From positions 17,300,001-17,364,000 of the forward strand of contig CM119371.1 in assembly GCA_051294905.1 (NCBI GenBank): a stretch of 64,000 nt of DNA. Reading direction: 5' to 3'. Under the pieces are notes generated by a model, which saw only the letters and a program-made list of their open reading frames with translations, was not told the DNA's origin and did no database searches. Both the position numbers and the translations under genes were made by a program. Of the stretch, positions 5,091-62,100 are shown in pieces. The stretch is from Botryllus schlosseri (taxonomy: Eukaryota). How positions within the stretch are numbered: position 1 is the stretch's first letter; every line of letters starts with the position of its first letter.

Positions 5091-5503
5091 GTCTAGAAGT
5101 ATATCAGTTATGACAGCACATACTTCTGGGGTTTTTGTCTTGTATAATTCAGTTTTGACTTCTATTGGTTTTACCGCAGTGCCAAGGTTATTGCAAGCCA
5201 AAAGTCTTGTCACCTGGTCGTAGTTGTTACATAATACGCTCAAATCTCCGGATGGAAGTATCCTGACCTCCTAATATGCACCACCTAGTACTTGATGAAG
5301 GTTTTTGTTGACAAGAATTGGATTATAAGAGCGAAGCTGTTTAGTCACACCTGTCACTATGACCGACTGATTTCCACCGACCGAATTACTAGATGCAGCC
5401 TCTTTAGAAGCAGGACCAGAGAGTTCCTCTTCAGCGGAGCGCGTATGCACCCCGTTTTTACCTGCCATTAAGGCTCCCTATCTACTGCAGTATCACTATA
5501 CAA

Positions 5504-12194: not shown

Positions 12195-12790
12195 CAGGGT
12201 TCTAACCAAGTCACAAGGCTCCGAGTCACAAGTCAATTTCACTTTTATAATTTTGACTCGAGTCAAGTCGAGTCATTTTCAACTCACCACCGAGTCAAGT
12301 CCGAATCCAAGTCATCGTTCAGAGGGTCGAGTCCGAGTCATGGTATTATGACTCGAGTCGAGTCCAAATCAATACGCTGACTGCTCAGTTCCCAGCTAAA
12401 ATCTTGTTAAACTCACTTTTTATAACTCTGTTTGATGATTTTGAATGGTTTGCATTTATAATATTGTGATTTTCCACACTTTTAGCAGGTTCTGATCGCA
12501 TTCTCACGTGCTAGTACAAATAAACGAAATCCCAATAGGGTGGATACTTTACTATTCTTCGAAATTACGAAAAAATATCGGTCTTGGCCGTCTGCGTCTC
12601 GAGTCATATGACTTGGTTCGAGTCATGCGCAATGACTCGAGTCCAAGTCGAGCCAATACACACATTGACTCGAGTCGAGTCGAGTCATTTCCGAGTTTTG
12701 AGAAAATGACTCGAGTCAAGTCGAGTGATCAGAAAATCGTGACTCGAGTCTGACTCGAGTCGAGACATAACTCGAGTCATTACAGCCCTG
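12195..12790. mobile_element. hAT MITE, gactcgagtc family
   Basis: cagggttctaacc...ttacagccctg; TSD cctcgaac/actcgaac. A truncated end of a related family lies at ~11979. Confidence 0.8.
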
Positions 12791-14589
12791 ACTCGAACTC
12801 GATTGTGTAGTTCGGATCCTCAAAAGGAAACGTGACTTTGCTGTTTGCTATGACCTGTATTATACTGCTGACTATTATCGTTTGATTGGACTGTCGGAAT
12901 CTAACGAAGTTTGCCTAAAAGTAACCTTAGCTTTCACACATAACTTGTCTGAAACGACATTTAGTCTAGTTTGATGCAGTTTCTTGCATCTCTTGCACCA
13001 TCGTGGTGTACGCTCAAAGTATACTATTTCTTCCCTATCACGAAACCAGGTAGTAAAACACGTTACGAATTTCTGAATCAATCTGAAATTATATGTTTAA
13101 TTTCTCTAATTAATGGTCAAGCGTCCAACGTGTTTAATTTTAGAATGGGTCATAAAAAATCCTAATATATGTGGCTGACCAACAGGAAACATGCCATCGC
13201 ACCAATCCGCGGACTGGTGGTTGAGATCTCATGATTTAGAATAATAAAAATAGCGCATTGCAGCGAAAATCGGAGTATTTCTTGTATTTTTGCTTGCAAA
13301 TGCCTATGCAGACGGGCAAACATTTTCAACCCCATGCAGTAGCGTCTATACCTGGCCTTACATATATATTCTTTCGAAGCCGTTCTCTATAAAGAAAATA
13401 CCCAGGATTTTTTTGTTCACCTATGACACAAAAACGTCATTTGATGCTGAACTCTGCCCTGACTACTGAGTGACAACCGCAGCTGATCATGGTTGATTTC
13501 GACGGTGTTCCACATAGAGATGACTCTTTAAACGTGGTATATGGTATGCTACTAACGTTCACAAATTTCTTAGTTTGCAACAAGCAGCAAAAAGGTTGGC
13601 AACCACTGTATGGAAGGTTGGAACCACCTATATGTTTCGGAGCCCGTGATCGCTTCCGATCTTCAAAGACCACTCACATGTGCACTGTGAATGCAAGGGT
13701 GGAAAAATGCTTGTTCGCAAGATTTCCAATATAGCGTAATGTGCAAATGAGTCAATCGGTATTCTCTGGTACAAATGCTTGATTTCACACTCGTTATGGT
13801 GAGAGGGAAACACATAAAACAACCCATCCGGAGATATATCTCAGGGATGCAATGGGTACTATTTAGAAATTTCTGGGTCAATCCACAAAAACAGAATCCT
13901 CCTCCGCGGAATCTACCTGTAATTGCCTTGTTTTCATCCGTTGCAATGAGTATGAAATCTAAATTGTGTATCAAAAAATCCCGTTTACCTGATTTGTACC
14001 TCTACGCCTCTACGCTATGGTGTGAATCTATGAAATACACGATTTCCGTTTACAATATTTGGCCACCGCAAAGTCTCATTTTCATATTAGAATATGCAAT
14101 TATGACTTCGCCTGAACAATAAACTTCACATAATGGAATTTTCCACATTCGCTCTCCTTTACCAATTTCCGTGACCATGCATCAATTCATTTGACGCTAT
14201 CTTTGTGACATCGAACGCCGAATTTAGGTTTAATAGGGACCGTAGATCTCCTAATAACGCAATCGTTTAAAAAAAGTTATTTACCACGCAAAACCTGAAC
14301 ACGAACACATGGCGCTGAGTGATGTCTCAATGCTAATTCAAACGCGAATCTATTGTTGCAATACTCTCTTCGACTTCGTCTGTTTCCGAAGTAGTATAGT
14401 CAATAATACTGGGCAACAACTTGCTCTACTATACATATGCCCAAATTATACAAAATTATAGAAATTTTCACGAATTTAGCGATATTACTTCTCTATACCA
14501 CATGGAAAACCACGCTTTTTTCATATAATAAGTTATATATACAAAGGGTCGATTGAATTATTAGGAAAACGGGTACTGGTAATCTAGGC

Positions 14590-29236: not shown

Positions 29237-29661
29237 TAGGCTTACCATACGTCCTCTTTTAAGAGGATTTGTCCTCTTTTTTGACTTTTTTGAAAGTGTC
29301 CTCGGAGGACGCCCTTTTGTCCTCTTTTTTGAGATTTTGTCCTCTTTTTTGAAAATTTAGGTCTGATATGCCGCAAATTAGCACAGAAGTGACGGTCCGG
29401 CGGATATTTCGGAGTGAAAAACGGTGAATTTAGCTCTGAGCGAAAAGATGACCTTTTTTTTTTTAGTCATCCACCTGGCAATGTAGAGTAAAAAACGGTA
29501 TTTTGAGATCTGAGCGGAAGTGATGACCTTTTTTTTTTTAGTCAACCGACCGCAAAGTGGGAAAAATTCACCGGTTTTTGAGAATTCTACTCCGGTTTTT
29601 GTATCTTGCAAATTTCTGAAAAAGTGTCCTCTTTTTGCATTTTCAAAATATGGTAAGCCTA
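29237..29661. mobile_element. hAT MITE, taggcttaccata family
   Basis: TIR taggcttaccata/tatggtaagccta; perfect TSD atataatt. Siblings at 17920, 41557 and 60861. Confidence 0.9.
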
Positions 29662-40904: not shown

Positions 40905-42314
40905 CAGTGGTTCTTAACCTCGCCCTCCGACTCCTGAGTCATTAAACGTACCGACTCCGACTCCGTCGCCAACTCCGACTATTTTCTTTAAGAGGACTCC
41001 GACCCCAACCCGTCTGCAATAGTATTCCCAATTTACTTCGAAAATTATATGCCACAGTGACGGTTAAATGACTAATGTATAACCATTAAAAAGATGCGAA
41101 CATATTATTAACGATGGCGTGCATAATTGTTTCATTGTGGCGCAGCTCTAATTATTCACTATGCAACTAACATGGTAGAATGCATTTCTAAATATCCTTC
41201 GGTTTATTCATATTTTATAGGTTTTCTTGACATGGACTCTTTAATACCCTGATATGTATGAATCATTCAAACATGGCGTCTATCCAATAATGTATAGTTA
41301 AAATGTCGATAAAACAATTGAAGTGTAGCTCTTGTGTATGAGTCAGCAACTAATACAGAGATCTAATTTACCAACTTCCTCATTACATACTATAGCCTAC
41401 GGATTACAAGCACACACATTCTCACTACTAATAAACATTGGGCAGAAATGAAATTTAGGAAGTAGTCAAATGTCATATGTGTAGTCAAGCAGCTGAGCTA
41501 CAATAGAAATATTTTTAATTTTGTCAAGTGGGAAGCAGCGTATGGTTATATTCACGTAGGGTTACCATACGTCTTCTTTTGAGAGGATTTGTCCTCTTTT
41601 TTGACTTTTTTGAAAGTGTCCTCGGGGGACGCCCTTTGTCCTCTTTTTTAGTCATCCACCTAGCAATGCGGAGAGAAAAACGGTATTTTGAGATCTGAGC
41701 GGAAAGATTACTTTTTTTTTAGTCAACCGATCACAAAGGGGGAAAAATTCACCGGTTTTGAGAATTCTTCTCCGGTTTTGCCAGTCTCAAATTTCTGAAA
41801 AAGTGTCCTCTTTTTAGATTTTCAAAATATGGTAGGCCTACATTCACGTCAATCTTACAATTTCACAAAACCAGACGATGTATATTTACTCTGTCACAGT
41901 ATTATGGTGTAATTGCAAAATTTGCATAATTTGTGACTGCATCACGATAATGCATATTGCGACGCAACTGAATTGCAATTTGCAAATAGTGTCCAATTTC
42001 ATCAATATCGTCAATAAAAATAACAGTGATTGATGGTGCATAATAATCCTTTTTTAGTCATTATTAGTAATTTAAAGATACATTTGAGAGCAATTGTTTT
42101 CATAATGAAGAAGTTGGATTCGGAGTCGGAGTCAGGGTGATTTTCACAAGCTCTGACTCCGACTCCAGCCATTATATTTTCACGACTGCGACTCCGACTC
42201 CAAGTAGTGCTAAAAATGTTCGAGACTCCGACTCCGTTAAGCGAATAATTAGCCTCCGACTCCGACTCCAACTCCACCGACTCCGACTCCACCGAGTCTG
42301 ACTCCACCGCCCTG
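40905..42314. mobile_element. gactccgactcc-family element with nested MITE 41557-41840
   Basis: Colinear with 22310-24276; nested tagggttacc..ggtaggccta with TSD tattcacg/cattcacg. Confidence 0.75.
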
Positions 42315-43719
42315 GTAGGAATTGTGTCTGACAAAGTAGGTGCATAGAAATAACTAGGTTGGGAGTTTATCCTTACAGGAATATTACGAGTTATCCGGTA
42401 CTGCTGTGTTGTTAACAGTAAACATACATACGCACACGCTCGCCGCGACCCAATAACGTACGGTGTTCTGTATTTCGCGATTTCACGTAGCACTGCTTGA
42501 CTACTTCGATTGGATACAGATCAAAATCGTGGCCTGGATAGACCAGAGGTCTCAAACGCGGCCCGACAGAGCATTTTGTGCGGCCCGCGACGACATTTTA
42601 AATTTTTATTAATTTGACAATATATAAGAGTCACATATATCTTTTCAGGTTATAAAGTGAAAATTCCCTCTTAATGCTCCGAAATCCTGAAACTATTCAT
42701 CAAACTCCACTATCACATCAATTGCAAACGCTACCATGCAGTGGAAGACTTACTAATTCGCCACATTTCCAATTCATGATGACAAAACCTGACCCTGAGA
42801 CGATTCGCGACTCAAATTTGTCAGTTGGACTTGGACGCGACTCAGACTCGGGCTAGCTCGATGGCAAAATGAAAATGACTGGAGTGGACTCGGAGTGATT
42901 CGGAATGCCGTGAATTTGTTAGAACCATGGACGCATCAAACTAATCGCGTAGCCTATCAGGGGAATAGTAATAGATCAGATGGTCGCAGCTTGGTATTTC
43001 GCTAACTAAGCAAGTAGTTATGGCAACCAGTGGCAATCTGTAAGTTACATCTTTGGTCGCTATACCACGTTATTAAGGTTACTTAAAGGTACCGAGTACA
43101 GTAGTGGTACGCTCCAATGATGTAACAACAATTGGCCGTTCGGCGTTTAGATATTCCAATCACTAGGACACATTCATTAATATATCTATATTATATCTAT
43201 ATTTTTTCTGCTCCTATATTTAAAGATATTTGGCCATGAGATTAATAGCCTACTTAAGTACTTATCAGAAGTATACCCGAATCCAGGATTGGAATTACAA
43301 TCCTCAACCTAAAAATGTTTTGATATCAGATCATCAGTCTCTATTATCAATCTGTTAAATTTAAGATATTCATAGTAGCTGCAAAATTATAACCCGATAG
43401 CTTTTATGGTGGCATTATGCATTTTCTGCCCATATGGTGTCTATATCTCATAATTATTATATATCAAGTATACAACAACAATTCTATTCCAGTAGTTATA
43501 AATGTGACGATTCTTTTGGTGCCAAGCCCAAACTGATACAAGAGTTAATCACATTTTGACGATGTGTGTTTACTGTCAGTCTGCTGGGTCGGCTCACTTT
43601 CAATAGGACAATTCATTCATGCCAAAGAAGGCCTACTTGGAAAGATATAGAATACCCCTATAAATGCAGCGGCCCGCGGCAGTAGTATATAGGATCGGTC
43701 TGGGGGTGGCAGGGGCTCT

Positions 43720-44780
43720 TATGGGCCCGCTCGCATGTCGCATGGAAAACTCGTGTTGGCATATCGCGCTTTTAGACCCCCCTATCGCTCGCACATCGCC
43801 ATTGGTTCTTATGGGTGCGCTCGCATGTCGCACTTTCCGGTATAGGCATCTCTCACACATCGCATGGAAAACTCGTGTTGGCATATCGCGCTTTTAGACC
43901 CCCCTATCGCTCGCACATCGCCATTGGTTCTCATGGGTGCGCTCGCATGTCGCACTTTCCGGTATAGGCATCTCTCACACATCGCATGGAAAACTCGTGG
44001 TGGCATGTCGTACTTTTGGGTATAGGCGGTGGCGGTGATTCGCCTAGGTAATATTTTGGTAATTAGTTTACCACAGAGCCGGCGTAGACGGCGATTCGAA
44101 TATCAGCAATAACCGCGTTCACAAACTAACACTTCAAAAATGTGTGAAATAGTTTGCAAAACCCCGCGATCGCTGACAAGATAATGTCTCGGACATAACC
44201 ATCTTTCGCGACTTGGTGTTACAGGCACATCGATCGCTCACGCGGTGAAATATTCGTAAGCATCACTCGCAGAATTATATTTTGGTAATTATTTTGTCAC
44301 AGAGCCGGCGTAGACGGCGATTCCAACACCAACAATAACCGTGCACATAAACTAACACTTCAAAAAAAGGTGTGAAATATTTGTAAAATGCTACGATCAC
44401 TCACAAGATAATGTCCCAGACATAACCATCATTCGTGACTTGATGTTACATACATACCAATCGCTCACAAGGTAATATTTTGATAGTTTGGTACGGAACT
44501 TGATTTCACTCGTAAGATTTATTAAGTAACGAATAACAGACCGCCAGTGTCGGTAACTTGAATAGCGACAAATTGTCACTTATTTCCGCTCTAACCCTAA
44601 TCCTTTGTGAAGTGAACGCTTATTCAAAAGGGTGTGATATAATTTTAAAATCCAACGACCACTCACCGGATAATGCTTCAGACATAGCAATCCCTCATAC
44701 CCGCTCACAAGGTAATATTTCGGTAATTAGTTTGTCACAGAACCGTCGCAGGCGGTGATTCGAAAACCGACAATTTGTCA
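43720..44780. repeat. Tandem repeats in the Polinton terminus (122-bp unit x~2.3, then ~200-240-bp units); mirrored at 56740-58420
   Basis: cgcatggaaaactcgtg recurs at 43739, 43861 and 43983; ggtaatattt..taatt recurs near 44047, 44275, 44470 and 44710. Confidence 0.85.
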
Positions 44781-45179
44781 CTCGCCCGCGATCGCTATAT
44801 GTTTCACGCCTCCAGAATAGTGGCTGACTTTAGTTGCGTGATAAGATCCATGAAAATATTCAATCAATGTGTTAGTTTATCAACTTGAAATGAAACTCGC
44901 TACACAAATCAAGTCGATTCGTATCTGAATGTTTTAAATCGGTACAACTCTAATCCTTTGACAAATCCCTTAACGCGTTTTTGTTGAATCGAACGTAACC
45001 CGAATATTGCTGACGCCGACTTTCATCCGCATCGAATTATTCGCGCATTCCGCGCCACTGTTTTCACACTTATAGAATCAATACCAACTATAACTCTACA
45101 AGAATCAAGAATCACAAGTATGTGCATTACACAGTTATTGTCTTTATTAACTTGAAATCAAACACTTAACAAAAACACG

Positions 45180-48100
45180 CAACTAATCATTTGGCAACTC
45201 TAGCATTACCAAAAAATTCCAGTATTGTTGATTGAAAATCCTTGAGTCATTATTATCAAAAATGTTATAGTACCGCATCGGAATCCATTCGCGGGATGTA
45301 CTAAAGGTAAATCCAGATAATCCAAAATGGATTTGGACTTTGACAAACATGACTACCAACTTTGATCCAGTCACATTTCAAGATCATACTTTGAAACAAT
45401 CCTTGAAACTTACAACTCTATTCACGACTGAGTTTTCCGTTTATCAAATAGAGTTTCAGTAAATACTATCGCGATATTTTAATGTGTTACTACACACAAT
45501 AGAATCAATCAATGAAATAGCACCTGTTGTAAATATTTCTAACTTGACAACCACTTGTGCATACCGCGATCGACTTGTGACGCGATGAGTTAAATCGTAA
45601 ATCGGAATATTTCAATCTATTTGTCGAAACCTTGAACAAACTATCAGGTTATTTTTTGTTGTAATCGAGTGAACGGAAATAGTATTACGTCTCAACATTT
45701 TAACATCTTCCCATACACAAAAGAGTAAAATACAAAAAACCTTGTCAAGTCAATCCGTTTGTAACTTACCCAACCAAAGCAAAAAGTATCCTTATGAAAA
45801 GTAGACAAGACTACGCGAGTAATCACCACAATCCAAAATCCATAGCAAGTTCGGTTGTATTCATAGTCCACCAACTCGTATTTTTATTCAACTGTAAAAG
45901 TCGTTACTATTCCGCAAGACAAAGAAATTACTATGTGGTATATTTTGTAAGACAAAAGTAATTACCTCTCGGTGTCGGCGACTTGAGATTACCATATGTT
46001 TTGAGCATATGATATTTGAATGTCTGACCAACGTAGTTAAGAATTCATTTCGTACGATCGAACACCGGTATTACATTGAAAGTTATCATGCTGTAAACAT
46101 AAGGATTGACACATGGATTTGACATATGTAATAGTTGATCATGACTTGATTATTAAATTATTCGCGTTAATTAGACCCGGTGTTGCGGTAAAGGTTATTA
46201 TGACAGCAACAAACTTTTCACCACCGTGGTTATTAACATATTGATTCGTAAAACTATACTTGTCTGAAATGTTCTTGGTTTGAAAGATATTCCGTGTTGG
46301 TACAAATCACTCTGTGTATTACGGATATCAGAAAATATTTTTACAAATGTAGTTGTTTCCAGTAACCAAGACTAAAGGTGACACAACAATTTCGTTTGGA
46401 ATATCTTTACTGGACGCATCCTATTCTACTAGACTTGAGTAATACACAAAACTCATGGCATTAACAAAATCACAATAGGCGCTACACTGAAATCTACAAA
46501 ATGTGTTTGTATTGTTACTCAAAGTAGTGATCATAAATTATCATTTAAATAAGTAATTGTAATCATAAAACCAAACTTGTGAAAGTCATTACCATAACAA
46601 AAGAATATTGTAGGTTGCTTGCTAAATGTATGCCGGAAATATTTGTAGAACGCTCACGACCAAAGAAATCGGAAATTTCTCCCCATTGTCATTCGTCAAA
46701 GTATATGTTGTCACAATACTCATCCCGTAAAAGATCTTACTTGTATGTGATTGAATCGCCGGTAATTAACTCGCTAAATCAAACCATAAGGAAATTTCAC
46801 TCAGTCATCGGATTATGATATTAAACAGCGTCGCTTAATCGGCGTAGAGCGTTTTTCTAAATGCAAATCATACCTGACCAACAGAAAACAATTTTCACTC
46901 ACCTTGTAATGAAACCACACTGTTAAAAATATTCTATGCCAAATTACTGGTCTGGTCCTGGCAGCAGTTTTACGACTCTGAGACCAGTAAATTTGAAAAA
47001 TATTTTCCCGTAAATATTATTGACCGTAATTTATTTTTACAAAGACTGACTGTTAAAATTTTTACGGAAAATTCCCGTTACCTGATGTAACGGAAAACGG
47101 CTGTAATACCAAGTTACTGGTCTAGTCCAGTGCAGCAGTTTTACGCTGATGAGACCAGTAAATTCGAAATAACTCTCCCCGTAATATGATTTTACATATG
47201 CTGACCGTAGGAAATTTTACGGAAAATTTCCGTATCCTAAGGTAACAGAAATCTGCTGTAATATCAATATACTCGTCTGGTCCCTTGCAGCAGTTTTACG
47301 TTCCTGAGACCAGTAAATTTGAATCAGGTTTATTTGGTGCAGGAACACGTAAAAAAAAGTAAGTGTGGATAATGACGAAAATCCAGTCTTTCTTGTGGAG
47401 ATCATCGGTCAGCAACTGCCTGAATGAAGAAGGCTTCATCAAAACTTCAGCAGCAGTTGAAGGACTGTACTTTGGGCCATGCTTTTTTGTAGGTTCTTCT
47501 TTAATCTGAACAAAGATTATGCTGTCATCAACACCGTTAAAATTTGGAAACTTTGAGATGCTATAGTATGACATACTGCGACTTTTCATATTCTTGTCAA
47601 TTTCTTACATAATGATGGCCTAGGATAGCGATGTCGAACATAAGGCCAGCAGGCCGCATGCGGCCTGCGAAGCAATTCTGAGTAGTTTGAAAAACCCCTG
47701 TATTACCCAGCACATTTTCTAACAAATGTTGAGATATTATTGTAAGAAATGCTTCCCGCAAGGCCACAAATGTCAAGATCATAGACCGTGATATAATTAT
47801 CCGACAGTGGTGTTATGGTTTTACTCTAGTCATCATCAGGAACAAGTTGGTGATACTGACATCCAATTCCAAAAACTCCAGAAAGTGCACACTGAGTTCA
47901 TATTTTTATGAAGAAATGAGCCAAAAAGTAGTTATTCGTGAAGTGAAAAAAAACTGTTATATGCAGGTCGCATGGAAAATATAATAGTTATAAAAAATAC
48001 AATTCAAATATATTTGGTCGCACTGCTGTATCACTTCTACTGTAAGGCCCCAGACAGACAGAGAAACCCGAATGACGATTAATAATGAGCCACATTCTAA

Positions 48101-51100
48101 CGTCTGCGTTTACAATTAAATCACTTGTGTTCCTCAAAGCGCATACGATGAGTTAACGGCAGATTACGATTAAAACAAAGGGAGCATACAAATATGTCAG
48201 CTTATTCCGTGGTTAGAGTCAGTGTTTAAGCGGTTGAATTCAAACGATCAATCTTTGAATTTTTGCCAAACTTCCGTTGTTTGCGAGTAAAGGTGCTGCT
48301 AGAATATATCCATATGATATGATCGTGAATGTTATGTAATATACCAAAATGTATACAGGATTGATAATAAACTATTTAAGCGAAAAGTAAGGTCGGGCGT
48401 TTTGATGTACCTTAACATTTTGGAATGATTTGACTGATCCGGCCCGCGAGCGGTTTGAAAGTTTGAATCTGGCCAGCGACGCAAGTTGAGTTTGATACGG
48501 ATACCCTTGGCCTAGGACTTCGTACCTGAATCATCTTTTCCAGCGTGATTGCAAACTTTTCTGGCAATACTCCTTTGCATCGCACGTCCAATGTATTTCG
48601 CACGGCATCGTGCTAGAAGCGAGAGGCGAAATGATCCCTTTCTATCACATAAGCATTCGACGTCATGATTCATAATGCCATAACGCTTCCCTTTTCGTGT
48701 AGTTCAATGTCAGAAAATGTAATACATTCTTATAAGCCATAGCTTCTGTTCACCATTAAACTGTAACGAAAATACATACGTCTTCAGAAACAGGACTGAG
48801 AATAACTTGCCAGATTTGAGCTCGGATACTGCTATACCTACAATATCTGCTATCAACACCTGCAATATTCTAAAGCTAGAGTTAAGCTGTGGCATCGAAA
48901 CCCTCAATATCTTACAGCAACACATCTTGTTATTATCCAATACGAAAACATCGCGTCGATATAATATCTATCTCGGAACATTCAGCCGCACGTGCTCAGG
49001 CTCAGATATGTCTGACGTCTGACGCCACTATGTCTGGAAAATGTATGACGTCACAATGTACTGTTCGCTCGAGCAGCTACGAATTCATGATCAAACAATT
49101 CACAAGGCCATTCGCAGGAAAAAGGTAAAGGACGTCTACTACTCTCGTCTCAATGGCAAAGGAGCATGGCGGCTAAACACCAGTTCCAGTGTTTCGATAT
49201 ATAGTTTGCATCATACATGCGTTAAGGAGTCTACAATGGTGGCAGAACTGGTCCAACAGATAATTACACAAAAGATCATACCTGCAGTAAAACTACATAA
49301 CATACCAAATTCGCTTGCCATGCTACTATTGCTAGACCTTAATGTCTCAAAGGATACTATTTATGAAGCGATATAAACGATGGTATCTGCAATGCCCAAA
49401 TGTTCGGATACCATTCACCGATTAGCAATCAGCACGGCCATCGATGTCGTAATTTGGTTGATGATTGAAACATGATGTAATTACGAAAATCACATATATA
49501 TATGTACATAAGACCGTAAGCGTGTAAAATGATCGAACTGTGAGTTCAATAGCAATGTTGCAAATATTGATTATCCAGTAAATCGCTTTTACGAATGCCA
49601 AAGTAAATCCGGAATACTTATTATCCAGTTAATTGCTTTTACAAATCCAAAAGTAAATCTGAAATACTGGTTATCCCGTAAATTGCTTCTACGAATTTAA
49701 TCTGTAATTTTTTTACCCTCTAAAAACAAGTAAATTTACTTTTGACGTGCCCGTATATTAATTTAACGGGCATTTACCGTTAATATAACTGACGGGACAA
49801 ATTTACCGGTATAATTTGGGTAAATCTACGAATATTTCTAAGAGTGCAAGTGGTGGACCTTCGTTCAATATTTTGTTTGTGTCAAATACTTTGCAATAAA
49901 CACACACACTGGAGTGGTTGAGCTTTACATCATCAAGCTGTCATCTGTAAATCGAGATCACATCCGACTTGTAACTGTATCGTTTACCTAACCGAGTTGT
50001 ATGCACAGTTTCATATTTTTATCATTTAGTGATTGCTGAACATACCAAACGATACACATTCACTTCCGAAATACTGCGTTGATCTCAATTCCCTTTGTCG
50101 TGATAACCGAAGTACATTTGTTTCGAATTCGTAACAGCCGACTTTTCTATGACACGATAAATTTTGACAAGTTATGCTTAGAAGATTGGTTGCATATCGC
50201 GAAAAATAACATACTGCTCATATTGATACTGTTAATCGGTATCTTCACGTGAGTCGATTTTCAAATGAGTAAAATTTATTACATGAGTTTCTCCGCTTAA
50301 TGTAAATGAAAACTCAGTCGTCTTTTAACATCACAAAGACATTGATAAAAAGTAAGCAATCAAACACAACACTTTGTACGACACTAATTATTGTTCCACA
50401 CATCTCATTTCATACTAAGTGTATACGAAAGATATTCATGTTACACGAAAATATTCGCTCATGCTACAAACCTGTACAATGATTGGTGGTGTAAGTCCAG
50501 CACAATTGTGGTATCCATACGAGGTTAGTTAACACAATTTACGACACCGAGGTCGCCTCATCCTTCGTAAGACAACAAACCAAGGCTTCAGGATATGTCC
50601 ATGTCATAACAATAAATCAGCTACTCCAACAACAGAGTACATATGTTTTCTAGCACGGTGCTTACATCTTACACACAAATCAACCTACTTTGCTAACGAA
50701 AAGTGCTGAGTCATCACATGGTTGTCCTCACAACAATACAACTAAAACATACTATCATACAAAATGGCCGTTATAGTTTGCACACCAACGATACATCGTA
50801 CAAGTAGCAAGTCTCGAGAATCCAGTTATTCAAAAAACGTGAAAGTGTTTCTACGCCAAGTCGGTATGTTGACGAAAGCATATATTGTAATATCATGATC
50901 GATTTACATTCGTTGGTCACAAAATGTCACTACTCTAAATAATTATTTTTCACTCAAAGCCTACTTGTCACCATTCGTTTCATCAAGCACGAGTTTAAGA
51001 AACCTGCTACGACATGAATTGTTTATGTTGTGTAAATAGGTAATAATTAATTTTAGTAACACTATATCAACATCATCGAGTTGCGCGAATAAATTTACAT

Positions 51101-51340
51101 GTGGTCTTGTGGTTTTAATCGAAGTATACAGCACGGTCTAATGTAGAGTCATCTCTACTGTACAGCAACTCGGTAATCGAAATGTATTAAAATTTAAACA
51201 ACGATCTTGTTTCGTCGCACCAAAAATATGTTTACTATCGCGATACTCTGCACAGGCCGTGTAAATCCTTTTCACACTCGTAATAGTATGCCAACAGCGA
51301 CCGGCGACAACGTTTAACAATACCAACGACACTAAACATA
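45180..51340 (-). pseudogene. Decayed protein-primed DNA polymerase B, left arm (split by the EnSpm insertion)
   Basis: Reverse complement of 53100-56333 with essentially the same lesions. Confidence 0.6.
46918..49846. mobile_element. EnSpm/CACTA-type DNA transposon in the left arm only; nested hAT MITE 47626-48509
   Basis: TIR cactgttaaaaatattc/gaatatttctaagagtg; 2-bp TSD CA shown by the empty site in the right arm (54590-54605); subterminal repeats. Nested element TSD gcctagga. Confidence 0.85.
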
Positions 51341-51880
51341 CGATACCTACCCAAGTAAAATTACCATTTTCACCTGGAGGTCGGTCGTTACCCGAGTAGA
51401 AATACCATTGTCCTTTGGAGATTTATCGTTTACCCAGTGTAACAAACCCCTTTTCCTTTGGAAATCTATTTTTTCTCTGGTTAACAAACCTTTTTCACTT
51501 GGAAATATATTTTTTCTCTGGGTAACAAACCTTTTTCACTTGGAAATATATTTTTTCTCTGGGTAACAAACCTTTTTCACTTGGAAATATATTTTTTCCC
51601 CGGATAACAAACCTTTTTCCCTGAGCAACAAACCATTTTCACTTGGTGGTCCGTCGTTTACCCGAGTAAAAATATCATTTTCTTTTGGAGATCCGGCGTT
51701 TACCCAGTGTAACAATACATTTTCACTTGGAAAAATACTTTTACCTAGAGTAACTAATCATTTTCTCCTGGGTAACAAACCCTTTTCGTCTGGAAACTAT
51801 CATTTACCTGAGTACCAATACAGTTTTCACTTGGAAATCTACCTTCTCCATGGGTAACAATATCATTTTCGTTTTGAAAA
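51340..51880. repeat. 39-41-bp minisatellite, left arm
   Basis: Unit aacaaacctttttcacttggaaatatattttttctctgggt at 51483, 51524 and 51565, plus diverged copies. Confidence 0.9.
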
Positions 51881-52569
51881 CTGACAACCACACCGGACAA
51901 TTTGATAGTTTTGAACATGAATTTGTTTTCCATGATGTTTGTACACCGACAAATTGTATGTACACCTCGTCTACGTGAATACTTGTGAACAATCGTGACG
52001 TACTTGATGTGTAATGTCTTGTTATTTTCATGGAGACACAGGGTGTAACATGTTTACTTGAATATTGGTCGTTGGTTCATGAGTGAATATCCGGATCAGG
52101 CCCCCACACACTTTCTCGTATTAGTGATCCGGTTTCAGCTGACTGGAGCGACATGTATTGATCAGTAAAGACACAATATAGTAAACAGACCTGAGGAAAC
52201 TCACAAGTAACCCGGAGTTGTTAGCGCGATGGGGAACATAAATTCATTATCCGTGTATCAACCAGCTACCAAAGTCGAGGAGGTGTTTTATTCAGACATT
52301 TTGACTCTGGAAAATCCAAAGCACGAACCCGGACATCACGGACATATCGGAAACCCCTTTATCCGCCAATTCCGAAAACATACATGTCGATGTACAACAG
52401 CTCATTGTTATTGTATGTGAGTAACCAATGATTTTGATGGGATGCATCAGAGCAAGTGAATATTTGATTAGACAAATGTATCGGAGTCGTGGTTGGTGTA
52501 TATTTTGTCACTGCCCGTTGTAACAATATACAAAACTATCAAATTGTCCGGTGTGGTTGTCAGTTTTCA

Positions 52570-53100
52570 AAACGAAAATGATATTGTTACCCAGGGAGAA
52601 GGTAGATTTCCAAGTGAAAACTGTATTGGTACTCAGGTAAATGATAGTTTCCAGACGAAAAGGGTTTGTTACCCAGGAGAAAATGATTAGTTACTCTAGG
52701 TAAAAGTATTTTTCCAAGTGAAAATGTATTGTTACACTGGGTAAACGCAGGATCTCCAAAAGAAAATGATATTTTTACTCGGGTAAACGACGGACCACCA
52801 AGTGAAAATGGTTTGTTGCTCAGGGAAAAAGGTTTGTTATCCGGGGGAAAAATATATTTCCAAGTGAAAAAGGTTTGTTACCCAGAGAAAAAATATATTT
52901 CCAAGTGAAAAAGGTTTGTTACCCAGAGAAAAAATATATTTCCAAGTGAAAAAGGTTTGTTAACCAGAGAAAAAATAGATTTCCAAAGGAAAAGGGGTTT
53001 GTTACACTGGGTAAACGATAAATCTCCAAAGGACAATGGTATTTCTACTCGGGTAACGACCGACCTCCAGGTGAAAATGGTAATTTTACTTGGGTAGGTA
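52570..53100. repeat. 39-41-bp minisatellite, right arm (mirror)
   Basis: Reverse complement of 51340-51880. Confidence 0.9.
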
Positions 53101-56100
53101 TCGTATGTTTAGTGTCGTTGGTATTGTTAAACATCGTCGCCGGTAGCTGTTGGCATACTATTACGAGTGTGAAAAGGATTTACACGGCCTGTGCAGAGTA
53201 TCGCGATAGTAAACATATTTTTGGTGCGACGAAACAAGATCGTTGTTTAAATTTTAATACATTTCGATTACCGAGTTGCTGTACAGTAGAGATGACTCTA
53301 CATTAGACCGTGCTGTATACTTCGATTAAAACCACAAGACCACATGTAAATTTATTCGCGCAACTCGATGATGTTGATATAGTGTTACTAAAATTAATTA
53401 TTACCTATTTACACAACATAAACAATTCATGTCGTAGCAGGTTTCTTGAACTCGTGCTTGATGAAACGAATGGTGACAAGTAGGCTTTGAGTGAAAAATA
53501 ATTATTTAGAGTAGTGACATTTTGTGACCAACGAATGTAAATCGATCATGATATTACAATATATGCTTTCGTCAACATACCGACTTGGCGTAGAAACACT
53601 TTCACGTTTTTTGAATAACTGGATTCTCGAGACTTGCTACTTGTACGATGTATCGTTAGTGTGCAAACTATAACGGCCATTTTGTATGATAGTATGTTTT
53701 AGTTGTATTGTTGTGAGGACAACCATGTGATGACTCAGCACTTTTCGTTAGCAAAGTAGGTTGATTTGTGTGTAAGATGTAAGCACCGTGCTAGAAAACA
53801 TATGTACTCTGTTGTTGGAGTAGCTGATTTATTGTTATGACATGGACATATCCTGAAGCCTTGGTTTGTTGTCTTACGAAGGATGAGGCGACCTCGGTGT
53901 CGTAAATTGTGTTAACTAAACTCGTATGGATACCACAATTGTGCTGGACTTACACCACCAATCATTGTACAGGTTTGTAGCATGAGCGAATATTTTCGTG
54001 TAACATGAATATCTTTCGTATACACTTAGTATGAAATGAGATGTGTGGAACAATAATTAGTGTCGTACAAAGTGTTGTGTTTGATTGCTTACTTTTTATC
54101 AATGTCTTTGTGATGTTAAAAGACGACTGAGTTTTCATTTACATTAAGCGGAGAAACTCATGTAATAAATTTTACTCATTTGAAAATCGACTCACGTGAA
54201 GATACCGATTAACAGTATCAATATGAGCAGTATGTTATTTTTCGCGATATGCAACCAATCTTCTAAGCATAACTTGTCAAAATTTATCGTGTCATAGAAA
54301 AGTCGGCTGTTACGAATTCGAAACAAATGTACTTCGGTTATCACGACAAAGGGAATTGAAATCAACGCAGTATTTCGGAAGTGAATGTGTATCGTTTGGT
54401 ATGTTCAGCAATCACTAAATGATAAAAATATGAAACTGTGCATACAACTCGGTTTGGTAAACGATACAGTTACAAGTCGGATGTGATCTCGATTTACAGA
54501 TGACAGCTTGATGATGTAAAGCTCAACCACTCCAGTGTGTGTGTTTATTGCAAAGTATTTGACACAAACAAAATATTGAACGAAGGTCCACCACTTGGTT
54601 TCATTACAAGGTGAGTGAAAATTGTTTTCTGTTGGTCAGGTATGATTTGCATTTAGAAAAACGCTCTACGCCGATTAAGCGACGCTGTTTAATATCATAA
54701 TCCGATGACTGAGTGAAATTTCCTTATGGTTTGATTTAGCGAGTTAATTACCGGCGATTCAATCACATACAAGTAAGATCTTTTACGGGATGAGTATTGT
54801 GACAACATATACTTTGACGAATGACAATGGGGAGAAATTTCCGATTTCTTTGGTCGTGAGCGTTCTACAAATATTTCCGGCATACATTTAGCAAGCAACC
54901 TACAATATTCTTTTGTTATGGTAATGACTTTCACAAGTTTGGTTTTATGATTACAATTACTTATTTAAATGATAATTTATGATCACTACTTTGAGTAACA
55001 ATACAAACACATTTTGTAGATTTCAGTGTAGCGCCTATTGTGATTTTGTTAATGCCATGAGTTTTGTGTATTACTCAAGTCTAGTAGAATAGGATGCGTC
55101 CAGTAAAGATATTCCAAACGAAATTGTTGTGTCATCTTTAGTCTTGGTTACAGGAAACAACTACATTTGTAAAAATATTTTCTGATATCCGTAATACACA
55201 GAGTGATTTGTACCAACACGGAATATCTTTCAAACCAAGAACATTTCAGACAAGTATAGTTTTACGAATCAATGTGTTAATAACCACGGTGGTGAAAAGT
55301 TTGTTGCTGTCATAATAACCTTTACCGCAACACCGGGTCTAATTAACGCGAATAATTTAATAATCAAGTCATGATCAACTATTACATATGTCAAATCCAT
55401 GTGTCAATCCTTATGTTTACAGCATGATAACTTTCAATGTAATACCGGTGTTCGATCGTAAGAAATGAATTCTTAACTACGTTGGCCAGACATTCAAATA
55501 TCATATACTCAAAACATATGTTAATCTCAAGTCGCCGACACCGAGAGGTAATTACTTTTGTCTTACAAAATATACCACATAGTAAGTTCTTTGTCTTGCG
55601 GAATAGTAACGACTTTTACAGTCGAATAAAAATACGAGTTGGTGGACTATTAATACAACCGAACTTGCTATGGATTTTGGATTGTGGTGATTACTCGCGT
55701 AGTCTTGTCTACTTTTCATAAGGATACTTTTTGCTTTGGTTGGGTAAGTTACAAACGGATTGACTTGACAAGGTTTTTTGTATTTTACTCTTTTGTGTAT
55801 GGGAAGATGTTAAAATGTTGAGACGTAATACTATTTCCGTTCACTCGATTACAACAAAAAATAACCTGATAGTTTGTTCAAGGTTTCGACAAATAGATTG
55901 AAATATTCCGATTTACGATTTAACTCATCGCGTCACAAGTCGATCGCGGTATGCACAAGTGGTTGTCAAGTTAGAAATATTTACAACAGGTGCTATTTCA
56001 TTGATTGATTCTATTGTGTGTAGTAACACATTAAAATATCGCGATAGTATTTACTGAAACTCTATTTGATAAACGGAAAACTCAGTCGTGAATAGAGTTG

Positions 56101-56333
56101 TAAGTTTCAAGGATTGTTTCAAAGTATGATCTTGAAATGTGACTGGATCAAAGTTGGTAGTCATGTTTGTCAAAGTCCAAATATTTCATTTTGGATTATC
56201 TGGATTTACCTTTAGTACATCCCGCGAATGGATTCCGATGCGGTACTATAACATTTTTGATAATAATGACTCAAGGATTTTCAATCAACAATACTGGAAT
56301 TTTTTGGTAATGCTAGAGTTGCCAAATGATTAG
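53100..56333 (+). pseudogene. Decayed protein-primed DNA polymerase B, right arm
   Basis: Motif relics in Polinton-PolB order across frames: DLLLVRCIV (like D.LCLARAIV), DMQP (54246), CYEFET (54308, like FYDFET ExoI), CAYN (54437, like IAHN ExoII), KVFDT (54552, like FIDS), YQHG, VGG, DYSRSL (55689, like DxxSLYP), VKVQ..FG.SG (motif B-like). Confidence 0.6.
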
Positions 56334-59307
56334 TTGCGTGTTTTTGTTAAGTGTTTGATTTCAAGTTAATAAAGACAATAACTGTGTAATGCACATACTT
56401 GTGATTCTTGATTCTTGTAGAGTTATAGTTGGTATTGATTCTATAAGTGTGAAAACAGTGGCGCGGAATGCGCGAATAACTCGATGCGGCTGAAAGTCGG
56501 CGTCAGCAATATTCGGGTTACGTTCGATTCAACAAAAACGCGTTAAGGGATTTGTCAAAGGATTAGAGTTGTACCGATTTAAAACATTCAGATACGAATC
56601 GACTTGATTTGTGTAGTGAGTTCCATTTCAAGTTGATAAACTAACACATTGATTGAATATTTTCATGGATCTTATCACGCAACTAAAGTCAGCCACTATT
56701 CTGGAGGAGTGAAACATATAGCGATCGCGGGCGAGTGACAAATTGTCGGTTTTCGAATCACCGCCTGCGACGGTTCTGTGACAAACTAATTACCGAAATA
56801 TTACCTTGTGAGCGCGTATGAGGGATTGCTATGTCTGAAGCATTATCCGGTGAGTGGTCGTTGGATTTTAAAATTATATCACACCCTTTTGAATAAGCGT
56901 TCACTTCACAAAGGATTAGGGTTAGAGCGGAAATAAGTGACAATTTGTCGCTATTCAAGTTACCGACACTGGCGGTCTGTTATTCGTTACTTAATAAATC
57001 TTACGAGTGAAATCAAGTTCCGTACCAAACTATCAAAATATTACCTTGTGAGCGATTGGTATGTATGTAACATCAAGTCACGAATGATGGTTATGTCTGG
57101 GACATTATCTTGTGAGTGATCGTAGCATTTTACAAATATTTCACACCTTTTTTTGAAGTTCGCTTCGACGAACTTACGCGTAAGCTCCACCCTCGCTCGC
57201 TGCGCATACATGTGTGTATAATACCATACAGCCACTAAAATTTGATGTATGTGAGCATGTAGTGGGGAATCTCGGAAGACCGGGGCCGGCGGGCCATATT
57301 ATCATGTGAGACGAAAAACTGTCCGCGGGCCGTATATTGCCCGCCCCTGGTCTATGTCTTTCCAAGTAGGCCTTATTTGGCGGGAATTAATTGTTCTATT
57401 GAAAATGAGCCGATCCAAAAGACTGACAGTATCGTCAAATGTGATTTACTCTTGTATAAATTCAGGCGTGGCACGAAAAGAATCATCACATTTATGACAC
57501 ATTTATGTGCACGGTTATTGTTGGTGTTGGAATCGCCGTCTACGCCGGCTCTGTGACAAAATAATTACCAAAATATAATTCTGCGAGTGATGCTTACGAA
57601 TATTTCACCGCGTGAGCGATCGATGTGCCTGTAACACCAAGTCGCGAAAGATGGTTATGTCCGAAACATTATCTTGTCAGCGATCGCGGGGTTTTGCAAA
57701 CTATTTCACACATTTTTGAAGTGTTAGTTTGTGAACGCGGTTATTGCTGATATTCGAATCGCCGTCTACGCCGGCTCTGTGGTAAACTAATTACCAAAAT
57801 ATTACCTTGGAAGTGACTCCTAGATTTAGCAAACTATTTCGCACTGAATGGATTAGTGTAATAATCGATAGTAGCACGCATTTGGCCGGGAAACAATTCC
57901 GCACGCAGGTCATTCGAAATATAGGTCGCACTGCTTAATCCTCACAACAAGCCACGTTTCCGTTTGTGCGGTTATTGTTGGTGACTCGTACATATTCAAC
58001 ACCGCGCGAGAGATGCCTGAAAGTGCGAATCACGACCGCACCCATAAGAACACATGGCGAATCACCACAGATCCTGTAAGAATACACGACAGGCGAATCA
58101 CCGCCACCGCCTATACCCAAAAGTACGACATGCCACCACGAGTTTTCCATGCGATGTGTGAGAGATGCCTATACCGGAAAGTGCGACATGCGAGCGCACC
58201 CATAAGAACCAATGGCGATGTGCGAGCTATAGGGGGGTCTAAAAGCGCGATATGCCAACACGAGTTTTCCATGCGATGTGTGAGAGATGCCTATACCGGA
58301 AAGTGCGACATGCGAGCGCACCCATAAGAACCAATGGCGATGTGCGAGCGATAGGGGGGTCTAAAAGCATGATATGCCAACACGAGTTTTCCATGTGACA
58401 TGCGAGCGGGCCCATAAGAACCCCTGCCACCCCCAGACCGATCCTATATACTACTCGCGGCGTCGTCAAAACTGGAAATCTGGCCCGCGAGCACATTTGA
58501 GCTTGAGACCTTTGGGACAGACTGAGGTTGACGAGTTCATAATTGCATAAATTCATATTACTGCGCACATAGACGGTGAGTAGATCTTAGCGAAGGTGGC
58601 GAACATTTTTTTAGTAAACAGCACGTCAAATTAATAGGTGGGCCGCGGTAAATTGTCATCTCAAAATGTGTGGTTGCAACCATAAAAAGGTCAGAAACGC
58701 CTGCAATATAGACAAATTTCGTATGCAATGTTTTTAGCGAAGCTAGCACTTTTATCGAAGGACCAAGTGGTTTTTAACCTTTTCCCTCCAGCGCCCATTT
58801 TATTAATGTTGCCTAGGTCTGGCACCCGACATATTTTAAGAACTGTAGTATAGTACAAGCGGGGGGAGGTTGATGTCCGGTCGATCTTTTCGTATTGGGA
58901 CTTTATACTATTGGAAATATTTCGCACTTGAATCGAGCGCGAGGACCAGTAGATTAATTAACGATATAATAATTCAATGTGTAATATTCACAATCGAATC
59001 ACTCATGTTCTCGATTTTGCCCAGCCCTAGTTAAGAACCATTGGAATAACGGAAAAAATTGACAAAAGTTATTTTTGAACAACTCTAATGTATTGTATAT
59101 ACAATATACATACACTGTACAAATGTATATACACAACACAGCTATGCCTATATTTATTACGATTGATATATATATGTAAGTCTATTTTTTCGAGCCGGCC
59201 TGTCGAAGTCAGCATGAATACAGATTGGTTATCACTTTCTAATTTCCGGTATTTTAATAGTCATTGCCGAAAGCAGTGGTGACCACCACATTGGTCACAG
59301 GGTAGAC

Positions 59308-62100
59308 CAGCGGTTCCCAACCTTTTTCGACTCATCGCCCCCTTTTGAAGCTCCACACCGATCATAGCCCCCCCCCCAACTAATGGGAACCCAAACATGG
59401 GTATACAAACTGGGATCACCGGCGAGTTGACTAATAAAACAAAGGTAAACTTTTCGGCTCGACCTCGAAATAACACTTTTGCAGCTAAATTTTCATGAGT
59501 TGACTAAAAAAGTCGAATCTCCAGCTTGCCTCCAATCAGGACCGTAACAGCACTTCGTCAGCCCACCCCCCCCCCCCCAAAAAAAAAATCGTTGGTCTTG
59601 GGCCCCCATAGTCTGATAAACCATACCACATACCCCCCTCAGCCAGTGGGCTTTTTGTCGCTACATATCAGCTATACCCTATTTCATGTACTGTTTGGTG
59701 AGTCACCGTATTTAGGCTGAACGCGCAAAGCACGAAAAATTTATATAATTCATGTTTGAATCGGTCAACATGGTCGGGAATTGATTATATATTGCTATCA
59801 ATTTTTTATCCTCTCTCTGCTCATGGCTAATAAGATTTAACGGTAGAGCTGAGTGTGGTGTGTTAGAAAAGGTAGGACCCCCAGGCCCTAAGTAGTAATT
59901 ATACATCTTCGGGCGGACCCGTTGTTATATTGACTTCATTGCATGATGATTTTCCGTGACCTCCTATATCTGCTTTGTCAAAATATATGGAAATCGCAAA
60001 AACGTACCAAACTAAATGACGCACATGATTTCAAATTGGTATTTAACTGGCAAATAATTTTTCTCCGCGTGATTGCATTTGTCCTGTAGGGTTCACATCG
60101 CCAGTACAGGAACATTCGAGGCCATCCATTAGGGTGCCTATGGACAATTAAACATATATCGAAGTTTTTGGTCAGCACAAGGGCATTCCTTTTCGTCCAA
60201 GTTCTTCTCGCTATTGGACGTTCTGGCATACTTCTCGGAGTCGTATGTTACATGGCCTATAACTTCATATGTCTTAGTGCAGGGGTCGCCAACTTAAAAC
60301 GGGTCGCCGGACACTTTTCAAAATTCGTCGACGCCGCGGGCCGCATGACTTCTATATCGAGGCAACACTATTGAACGGCCATGTTTATATAACTCTACGT
60401 CAGTACAACGCTAACGTGGAAGCCGTGCAAATCATGATTTGTCATGTTATGAATAACCACAAGCATTCGCATTGTAGTCGCGCGGAGCGCGAAAAACATT
60501 TCACGTTCTCGAGTGAATTTCGTCATTAATATTAGTGAATTTTCACTTACCATCAAATATTTATCCTTTCTCAAATTCATCGGTAGAGTTGATTTAGGGA
60601 AGTTATCAATTCTGCGCTGCATCTATGGGTGGGCAAATTGTTTTAGTCCCTTCTGTTGCATGCTGTTATTTCTCGACATCTCATCAGCATTGTCGGTATA
60701 GTGTATAGATATTGGATTCGCCCAAACATAGGCCTATCAGAAACAAATTTCCTTCGTGGCGAGGAAAACACGGATTACAAATTGTTATTTATTTACGGGA
60801 CGCATCATTTTCCTCTGCAGTTCGCATCTGTATTGCATGGTATTGTGGTTAGCTATACACTAGGCTTACCATATTTCGGAAATGAAAAAAGAGGACACTT
60901 TTTCAGAAATTTCAGACAAGCAAAACTGGAGAAGAATTCTCAAAAACAGGTAAATTTCACCCGCATCATGATCGGTTGACTAAAAAAAAAAAAAAAAAAA
61001 AAGGTCATCACTTCCGCTCAGAGCTCAAAAACACGTTTTTCACTCCACATTGCCAGGTGGATGACTAAAAAAAAAAAAAAAAAAAAAAAAAAAGGTCTTC
61101 TTTTCGCTCAGCGCTGAGATCACCACTTTTCCCTTCGAAATACCCGCCGGAGCTTCACTTCTGCGCTAATTTGCGGCATATCACTCGCAAAATCTGACCT
61201 AAATTTTCAAAAAAGAGGACAAAATCTCAAAAAAGAGGACAAAAGGGCGTCCTCCGAGGACACTTTCAAATAAGTCAAAAAAGAGGACAAATCCTCTTAA
61301 AAGAGGACGTATGGTAAGCCTACTATACACTGTACTTGCTTGAAAATTATCTCCTCGTAAAGTTTGGTCTTTTGGGGAGCCCGAAGTCGTTTTCAAGGCG
61401 TCTCGGTCTGGGCAGTGGCGGGCCATTACACGTCAAGTCAATATGCTTATTCATATCAGCAAATTCTTCCTCCATGGAATGATATCACAATCGCCGAAGC
61501 CGTAAAAGCTAGTGAGGAATAGTGACATTGGGCACAGGATGATATATTACTTTGAAAAACAACGACAATATGTTTAAACTGAAATCAATTTCAGCATTTC
61601 AAAATGTTTTACTAAGCGTTTTTCCGTAATTTTAAAATCTGCTGGTCGCCGGCCGCAAAATATGACCTCACGGCCGCATGCGGCCCGCGAGCCGCGTGTT
61701 GGTGATACCTGTCTTAGTGTGTCCTGGCGCAGTAATGGCCGACGCCGAAGTCTCCATTTCCCTAAATCATGCGTATTTTTGTTTGGGGAAAGGTGCTTCC
61801 AAGTCAAGATATATGACAATACTAAATCGTGCGCAGCGCGAAAGATTTTGAAAAAGTTGCATGAATTTCTAAAAATTTCTAAAAAATTACTCTATAATTC
61901 ATGTTAATTCACCAAATAACATTAGGCCTCCTTCGGGTGCGGCAGTTACGGTCCTGACTGCATATAGCCGTTTTAACGCGCCATCGCCCCCTTCGTTGTT
62001 TTCGCCCCTTATCGCTCCCTTCGTCCGTTTTCGCCCCCCTATCGCCCCTTCGTTATTTTCGCGCCCCAGACCGCCAAATCGCCCCCGCTGGGAACCACTG
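59308..62100. mobile_element. Four-level nested hAT-type MITE stack
   Basis: A 59308-62100 (TSD gggtagac) contains B 59537-61956 (caggaccgtaac TIRs), which contains C 60280-61711 (TSD tcttagtg), which contains D 60861-61322 (TSD ctatacac). Confidence 0.9.

Follow-up and report, generated by a model that had tools for sequence, protein, structure and literature searches.

We analysed a stretch of 64,000 nucleotides from Botryllus schlosseri (assembly GCA_051294905.1, contig CM119371.1, positions 17,300,001 to 17,364,000 of the forward strand), hereafter called the window, and positions without a prefix are window coordinates. Positions 43681-58455 are occupied by a single mobile element of 14775 bp, built as a giant inverted repeat and delimited by a repeat search and self-BLAST. 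With a probability of about 80%, we read this element as a gene-less member of a palindromic family derived from, and dependent on, resident Maverick/Polinton-like elements, the range 53100-56333 in the interior of its right arm being non-coding. A first-pass annotation of the same DNA had proposed that this range is the relic of an ancient gene for a protein-primed DNA polymerase of family B (pPolB), carried by a helper-dependent satellite of an active Polinton. The satellite part of the proposal stands: the element has no open reading frame (ORF) or Pfam domain, it shares its termini and the length of its target-site duplication (TSD) with partner elements, and these partners carry intact PolB-type ORFs. 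The polymerase part found no support in six-frame Pfam scans, in tblastn searches or with a profile built from resident ORFs.

The palindromic element and its family

Self-BLAST pairs 43681-46917 with 54596-58455 and 49847-51913 with 52531-54597, the left and right arms being called A and B, respectively. Compared over their whole length, the arms differ by 36 mismatches in 5305 aligned bases (0.68%), in four blocks of 98.4-99.5% identity. The element is bounded by a perfect 6-bp TSD, CGCGGC, at 43675-43680 and 58456-58461, as had been claimed. Both element ends, read inward, begin AGTAGTATATAGGATCGG. The inverted termini carry a 5'-AG, both reading inward as AGTAGTATATAGG..., and the terminus of arm A is 5'-AGTAGTATATAGGATCGGTCTGGGGGTGGCAGGGG.

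Relatives of this element were searched for in the whole genome (495 Mb, 219 contigs). A DNA search using 53100-56333 as query returned 3882 first-look candidates, the best 40 of which were scored and all matched (50 matching pieces). Nearly the full query was spanned at 34 of these 40 places, with 93-100% identity and mostly as facing -/+ pairs. Four palindromic copies were read whole, namely the window copy, a copy on contig C9, a copy on contig C11 and a copy from a diverged C9 subfamily (C9b). Copies of the family measure 13-17 kb, a full copy being made of two arms of about 6-6.3 kb and a loop of 1-3 kb. In the C9 copy, the arms at positions 1040-7315 and 8291-14567 of the joined piece L021+L022 (6.3 kb) are 99.84% identical and enclose a loop of 975 bp (7316-8290 of that piece); the C11 copy is built in the same way. 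The C9b copy is 80-87% identical to the window copy, and its own arms are 100.000% identical over 5967 bp around a loop of 3.1 kb. None of the four verified copies contains an ORF of at least 150 amino acids (aa), and none longer than 128 aa was found in C9 and C9b.

Each of the three other copies is flanked by its own perfect 6-bp TSD (GTCATT, CCTGGG and CACGTG). Among ten terminus pairs of the family, the 6-bp TSD was perfect in eight, perfect after a shift of 3 bp in one, and conserved at 5 of 6 bases in the last one. The end motif AGTAGT-N6-GATCGSTCTGGGGGTGGCAGGGG, with at most 2 mismatches, was detected 76 times on the forward strand and 80 times on the reverse strand genome-wide, the reversed control motif giving 0 and 0. 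The genome thus comprises at least 156 termini with this motif, and most matches are paired at distances of 13-15 kb. Many TSDs of the family (CACGTG, TACGTG, CACGTT, CACGTA, ACCGTT) resemble the palindrome NACGTN, a likeness suggesting that the integrase prefers certain targets. A further terminus of the family was located at C1:17373514 (+), about 9.5 kb past the end of the window, with no mate among the 100 matches listed. We also considered a 21.9-kb terminus pair on C6 as a possible autonomous copy; it was rejected, its middle 10 kb consisting of rearranged family sequence without any ORF of at least 150 aa. Similarly, the wide arm pairs found on C2 and C3 correspond to nested or rearranged family copies.

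Relative to the first C9 copy, the window copy lacks about 1.72 kb: the loop is gone, together with the innermost left arm and 51 bp of the right one. Each of the two arms of the C9 copy can be aligned to window 51913-57159. Because of this loss at the centre of the palindrome, the segment 51914-52530 has the appearance of a spacer although it is arm sequence, identified by comparison with the C9 copy as the surviving arm B copy of the innermost arm. The 975-bp loop, lost from the window copy, is 92.6-95.3% identical between two subfamilies whose arms share only 80-87% identity; constraint on a cis element, or recombination of the segment, may account for this. A frame of about 100 aa within the loop was rejected as a gene: its codon differences between the two subfamilies are 5 synonymous and 5 non-synonymous, 1-base gaps interrupt it in 2 of the 3 other copies (C2mid and C11), and an in-frame stop lies upstream in the C9 reference.

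A Logan contig of another sample (run X6), aligned to 42700-59400, joins position 43674 to position 58456 and skips 14781 bases, which is exactly the 14775-bp element together with one TSD copy. This contig looks like an empty site, and the insertion is therefore probably polymorphic; the joint suggests that it is recent as well. In one RNA run, of which about 6% was sampled, the depth on the arms did not exceed 2, and 366 of the 375 reads lay only partly on the stretch. No RNA run was listed as containing the left junction of the element.

Sequence shared with a PolB-carrying partner

The genome contains a family of PolB-type ORFs of 1130-1300 aa (373 first-look candidates), and 36 of the best 41, which were scored, are free of stops. 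Intact ORFs of this type are enclosed by 3 terminus pairs among the matches listed, delimiting elements of 15-17 kb. The Pfam family PF03175 was found on 6 of 11 database homologues of these ORFs (best E 7e-244 at 37% identity), while searches against PHROGs and solved structures gave nothing useful. Judged on these homologies, the ORF family is the genome's own protein-primed-type polymerase.

One partner element only, C1:27764880-27780286, was read at both ends, its middle 4.2 kb lying outside the reading. It has inverted ends of 785 bp with 99.4% identity and a TSD, CACGTA. Its right end comprises ORFs of 225, 141, 126 and 432 aa, and an ORF of 188 aa adjoins the right inverted end. The Atlas clusters nearest to the latter are adenovirus-type endoproteases (score 0.95, 23 of 30 hits in that set); no match was obtained in Pfam or among solved structures. 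We call it a putative adenain-like protease from this language-model look-alike search and from what we take to be its catalytic motifs. A genome-wide search with PF00770 (Peptidase_C5) gave no match, and its positive control likewise gave none.

The palindromic family and this partner have several sequences in common besides the 6-bp length of their TSD. The terminal 45 bp, starting from the same AGTAGT, are 95% identical. A 220-bp subterminal block, at 57830-58050 in the window, is 89% identical to the inverted ends of the partner. A third block of 165-170 bp lies at 56246-56410 in arm B (+ strand; 71% identity with blastn, pairwise E 2e-16) and at 45106-45270 in arm A (- strand; 71%, E 7e-13). 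In the partner, this block corresponds to the last 40-odd codons of the protease gene and the sequence downstream, up to the inverted end. At the protein level, tblastn aligned LRVFVKCLISS in the window with IVRVFVKSLISE in the protease ORF at E ~1, which alone is not significant. This trace of the protease end is the only coding-derived sequence in the arms, and its first 88 bases alone fall inside 53100-56333.

The third block also indicates from which end of the partner the palindromes were formed. Positions 3140-3304 of the piece L064, just inside the right inverted end of the partner, match both arms in 3 of 3 palindromic copies with 71-72% identity. The interior of the left end (piece L063 beyond position 865) has no match in the palindromes except for a 104-bp repeat. 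As sequence unique to the protease end of the partner sits on both arms, the palindrome is an inverted duplication of that end. Both ends of the palindrome thus derive from the same partner end, inverted, in 3 of 3 copies, as in copy-back genomes, and from these comparisons the window element is a one-end-duplicated, copy-back-like derivative of the partner. Every motif-bearing terminus that could be assigned belongs either to the palindromic or to the PolB-carrying kind.

Content and divergence of the arms

The range 53100-56333 was examined for polymerase sequence in several ways. Using Pfam hmmscan on its six frames, with stops translated as X, no family B polymerase was detected at E <= 10; the only row obtained was DNA_pol3_delta_C (E 0.047, 14 bits), below its cut-off of 27. 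The same six-frame scans of the rest of the element and of the insertion nested in it were equally empty, with no family at E < 0.04 anywhere and neither rve or another integrase family nor an ATPase in 43681-58455. A search of the whole genome with PF03175 yielded 9 first-look candidates, all of which were scored. None was in the window and none was above the cut-off; 2 of them are the cellular Pol delta and Pol alpha, and 6 belong to the multi-copy family of 1130-1300 aa ORFs. Next, five resident PolB-type ORFs and two cellular PolB ORFs, making up eight ORF pieces of at least 300 aa (L001-L008), were compared by tblastn with the window and two other palindromic copies, giving a best E of 0.44 overall and of 5.5 within the element. 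Finally, three copies, translated into 2044 six-frame fragments, were searched with a profile built from four resident PolB-type ORFs, and the best E was 3.3; an ORF copy kept out of the profile, used as positive control, scored E = 0. Polymerase motif patterns were not found in any frame, except for a DTD tripeptide immediately followed by a stop and one K...NS match. Rfam searches of 41000-62000 recovered no family at gathering score. One of the cellular query pieces, L001 (C5:11747019-11750414), is the catalytic subunit of DNA polymerase delta, in one unbroken frame of 1075 aa with all the expected Pfam domains; it is unusually uninterrupted for an animal gene of this size and may be intron-poor or a retrocopy.

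The stop density of 53100-56333 is near random. Its six frames contain 388 stops, compared to 415 +/- 12.6 in 300 dinucleotide shuffles, a count that low being reached in 7 of them. Open runs extend to 92 aa at most, compared to a longest run of 99.6 +/- 20.5 aa in the shuffles, 182 of the 300 having one as long or longer. The stops and frameshifts shared by the two arms, on which the first-pass annotation relied, therefore only restate the near-identity of two non-coding arms. The near-identity itself was correctly described. In the 3231 bases aligned over 53100-56333, the arms are set apart by 19 substitutions and one 3-nt indel (0.59%), and the peptides quoted as examples are exact, NIVAGSC in arm B corresponding to NVVAGRC in arm A and VQIFHFG to VQIHFG.

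To place these differences in the history of the family, the range 53100-56333 was aligned from 13 arms. In 4 of 4 elements, each arm groups as sister to the other arm of its own element, with a support of 0.98-1.0 or with complete identity. Arm divergence within an element is 0.00, 0.09, 0.56 and 0.59%, and the median divergence between elements is 1.40% (range 0.56-1.86, 74 pairs). Substitutions common to both arms of an element account for stem branches of 0.22-0.40%. Comparing the window copy with 11 other copies, all 19 arm differences proved to be private to one arm, 11 being derived in B and 8 in A. Private substitutions since insertion amount to about 0.3% per arm. Larger events are arm-specific as well, arm A having gained a 2929-bp transposon and lost about 280 bp, and arm B having gained 342 bp. 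Since all arm differences are private and the arms are sisters, the arms were identical at insertion and decayed independently afterwards. Along the transposing lineage, some process copies one arm onto the other. Homogenisation of the arms, named by the first-pass annotation as an alternative, is thus retained in its general form, the arms being sisters in 4 of 4 elements, and not specifically as conversion in place.

The arms of the window copy can be described in turn. Both are internally repetitive: they contain tandem units of 41/42 bp and of 122 bp, as well as direct repeats that recur about every 226 bp. Arm A consists of an outer part (43681-46917), in which about 280 bp present in arm B at 57811-58090 are missing, and of an inner part (49847-51913), with 41/42-bp tandem repeats at 51439-51870, cut at 51913 by the deletion of about 1.72 kb. 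Between these two parts is nested the 2929-bp transposon (46918-49846), a later insertion which is outside the palindromic family and is missing from arm B. Its inverted ends, imperfect and 17 bp long (CACTGTTAAAAATATTC and CACTCTTAGAAATATTC), start with CACTG, and its duplication, CA, is of 2 bp; no Pfam match was found in its six frames. A joint 47505>48526 within it is carried by RNA reads of run X23 (8+17) and by a contig of run X13, the skipped segment having the ends CT..AC, that is GT..AG on the minus strand. The joint is spliced, and some copy of the nested-transposon family is therefore transcribed and spliced. Arm B (52531-58455), which includes the range 53100-56333, is non-coding; its 41/42-bp repeats occupy 52565-53005 and those of 122 bp lie at 58119-58395. 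Its 342-bp insertion (57160-57501), missing in arm A and in the C9 copy, is 82% similar to the left flank at 43498-43651, in inverted orientation, and is probably a member of a small repeat family. Outside the element, a repeat of about 460 bp occurs in three copies with 81-94% identity (29237-29661, 41556-41840 and 60861-61323). Two of them sit symmetrically inverted on either side of the palindrome, so that the inverted repeat seems longer than it really is.

Explanations, related systems and significance

Several other explanations of the palindromes were weighed. That the arm interior is an ancient, decayed protein-primed PolB gene, duplicated into both arms after its death, would fit with the PolB-type ORF encoded by the partner family and with stops that are marginally rarer than in the shuffles (388 against 415 +/- 12.6). 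There is even a true gene remnant at the right edge of 53100-56333, but it derives from the protease and not from a polymerase. The arms come from the protease end of the partner, while the polymerase lies 4.2-7.1 kb from its other end, and the Pfam scans, tblastn (best E 5.5 in the element), the profile (best E 3.3) and the motif patterns, apart from the DTD-then-stop and the single K...NS, all failed to reveal PolB. The protease relic can still be made out at 71% DNA identity, so that a polymerase relic of like age should be detectable. With no polymerase homology by three methods and the protease relic as internal control, the claim that a pPolB decayed before mobilisation is not supported, and we consider the reading very improbable. 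A more serious competitor concerns the way in which the arms are kept alike. In the palindromes of sex chromosomes this is achieved by gene conversion in place, and conversion within each chromosomal copy, rather than a hairpin or copy-back step at transposition, predicts the sister-arm trees and the stem branches of 0.22-0.40% equally well; it is also the alternative that the first-pass annotation had named. Yet private differences persist at 0.56-0.59% in 2 of 4 copies, including the 19 private substitutions of the window copy, in which three arm-specific indels of 280-2929 bp also remain unerased. Moreover, the arm identity of 100.000% that extends over 5967 bp in a subfamily 13-20% away from the window copy is better explained by recent regeneration. 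Because arms accumulate private differences, conversion in place is weak at best, and we hold it to be possible although rather unlikely as the main cause of arm identity.

Two further explanations would detach the palindromes from the partner altogether. They might be moved by an unrelated transposase, the shared ends being a captured fragment: superfamilies other than Polintons also make 6-bp duplications, and no integrase was seen in the two ends of the partner, its middle 4.2 kb lying outside the scan. However, it is the very termini that are shared (45 bp at 95%, from the same AGTAGT), as are the 220-bp block (89%) and the protease-end sequence. The TSDs have equal length and similar target sites (CACGTA, CACGTG, TACGTG, CACGTT), and all assignable motif termini belong to the two element kinds, so that such a transposase appears very improbable. 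Alternatively, the palindromes could be artefacts of long-read assembly arising from foldback chimeras, the arm identities of 100% and 99.84% in two copies reflecting collapse or over-polishing. This is hardly credible for four verified copies at separate loci, each with its own perfect TSD. Furthermore, 36 sites and independent insertions distinguish the two arms of the window copy, and the contig of run X6, a different sample, leaves out precisely the element and one TSD copy.

Some observations nevertheless weigh against a gene-less derivative dependent on Maverick/Polinton-like partners. The ORFs of the two partner ends include no integrase family, the middle 4.2 kb being outside the scan, and the DNA comparison between arms and partner covers the partner ends and not this middle part. 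In the partner ends, about 5 kb of each arm would appear to have no traceable source. The palindromic or autonomous class was assigned for 5 of about 78 terminus pairs. The protease label rests on the look-alike search and on catalytic motifs, without a Pfam or structure match; the empty-site joint comes from one contig, whose shorter side counts 26 letters; and sister-arm trees of this form would also result from conversion in situ. The shuffles contain slightly more stops than the range, some part of which may therefore have a very old, unrecognisable coding origin. Lastly, mobilisation in trans, the use of the partner polymerase and the hairpin step are inferred.

For a gene-less element that depends on its partners, the following course of events can be proposed. 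The palindrome would have arisen when the replicating polymerase switched strands in the copy-back or snap-back manner. Starting at the shared ends, the protein-primed polymerase of the partner may then replicate the palindromic element. The partner would also supply the integrase that inserts it in trans, the evidence, in the many copies with their own TSDs and in the empty-site contig, being indirect. A displaced single strand could fold back as a hairpin, one of its arms serving to template or correct the other, and identity would be kept in this way along the transposing lineage. After insertion, the window copy acquired its private substitutions and arm-specific indels and lost about 1.72 kb at its centre.

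These features were compared with those of known systems. Kapitonov and Jurka are said to have described in 2006 that Polinton termini begin with AG. The window element resembles Polinton/Maverick elements by its 6-bp TSD, its long inverted ends and its AG termini, and the resident partners by their PolB-type ORF and adenain-like protease. A passage of PMC3014272 gives a 6-bp TSD and a terminal inverted repeat of 584 bp as 'features typical of Polinton elements'. By contrast, no polymerase, integrase, capsid or protease gene was found in our scans of the window element, and its inverted ends, instead of measuring a few hundred bp, take up nearly the whole element, with at least 6 kb per arm.

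Foldback elements leave TSDs of other lengths, 7 bp for Galileo and 9 bp for FB. The Drosophila FB elements and Galileo, of the P superfamily, are portrayed in PMC3573991 with very long, repeat-rich arms and mostly gene-less copies, as here; our family differs in its termini, which are shared with a PolB-carrying element and not with one encoding a P-type transposase, and in its TSD of 6 bp. Copy-back and snap-back defective viral genomes, in which one end is duplicated in inverted orientation, genes are lost, the replication ends are kept and a helper is needed, offer a close parallel. They are known from RNA viruses, with DNA examples in adenovirus and parvovirus. They are transient products of infection, whereas the window family is integrated in the germline in many copies with their own TSDs.

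Butterfly polintons, as outlined in part of a preprint (bioRxiv 10.1101/2025.02.07.637071), have inverted ends of about 2 kb containing hexon and adenain genes. There too, growth of the inverted end has proceeded inward from the side of the adenain (protease) gene, and sequence unique to one end is now at both ends. In the outline given there, butterfly elements nonetheless keep their genes (two hexon and adenain copies) and stay autonomous; in our family the duplication is the whole arm, in which about 170 bp of the protease end are recognisable and nothing is coding. The Tlr1 elements of Tetrahymena are, in the words of one section of PMC5499653, 'sometimes viewed as non-autonomous polintons'; they carry genes and are there said to be better seen as polinton-like viruses. 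Like our family they are Polinton-related and discussed, at least in that section, as having less than the full Polinton gene set, and unlike it they have genes. In the literature searched, the term 'non-autonomous polinton' was found for Tlr1 alone, and no work was found joining Polintons with copy-back or snap-back genomes; Repbase, which was outside this search, may hold similar elements.

The replication and movement of Mavericks/Polintons have so far been deduced almost wholly from their gene content. The gene-less family marks the sequence that is sufficient in cis, namely a terminus of about 45 bp and the subterminal blocks, and it would reveal the machinery acting in trans on substrates of 13-17 kb. 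That its arms evolve in concert points to a hairpin or panhandle stage of a single strand. For genome annotation such palindromes are a risk, since they may pass for decayed viral genes, as they did in the first-pass annotation; they are also likely to give rise to long hairpin RNA and to genome instability. A bolder interpretation, which we put forward only tentatively and think rather less probable than its contrary, is that of a germline-transmitted 'defective-interfering' lineage produced by an endogenous Maverick/Polinton virus of an animal. Its gene-less hairpin replicons would be generated by copy-back at the protease end, replicated from the shared ends by the protein-primed polymerase of the virus and inserted by the viral integrase, and their two 6-kb arms rebuilt from a single template in each cycle. 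If true, this would explain how arms can be 100% identical within a copy despite subfamilies that are 13-20% apart. The palindromes would then allow the way in which Mavericks replicate, which is still unobserved, to be read out in nature, and they would perhaps be a parasite damping these elements.

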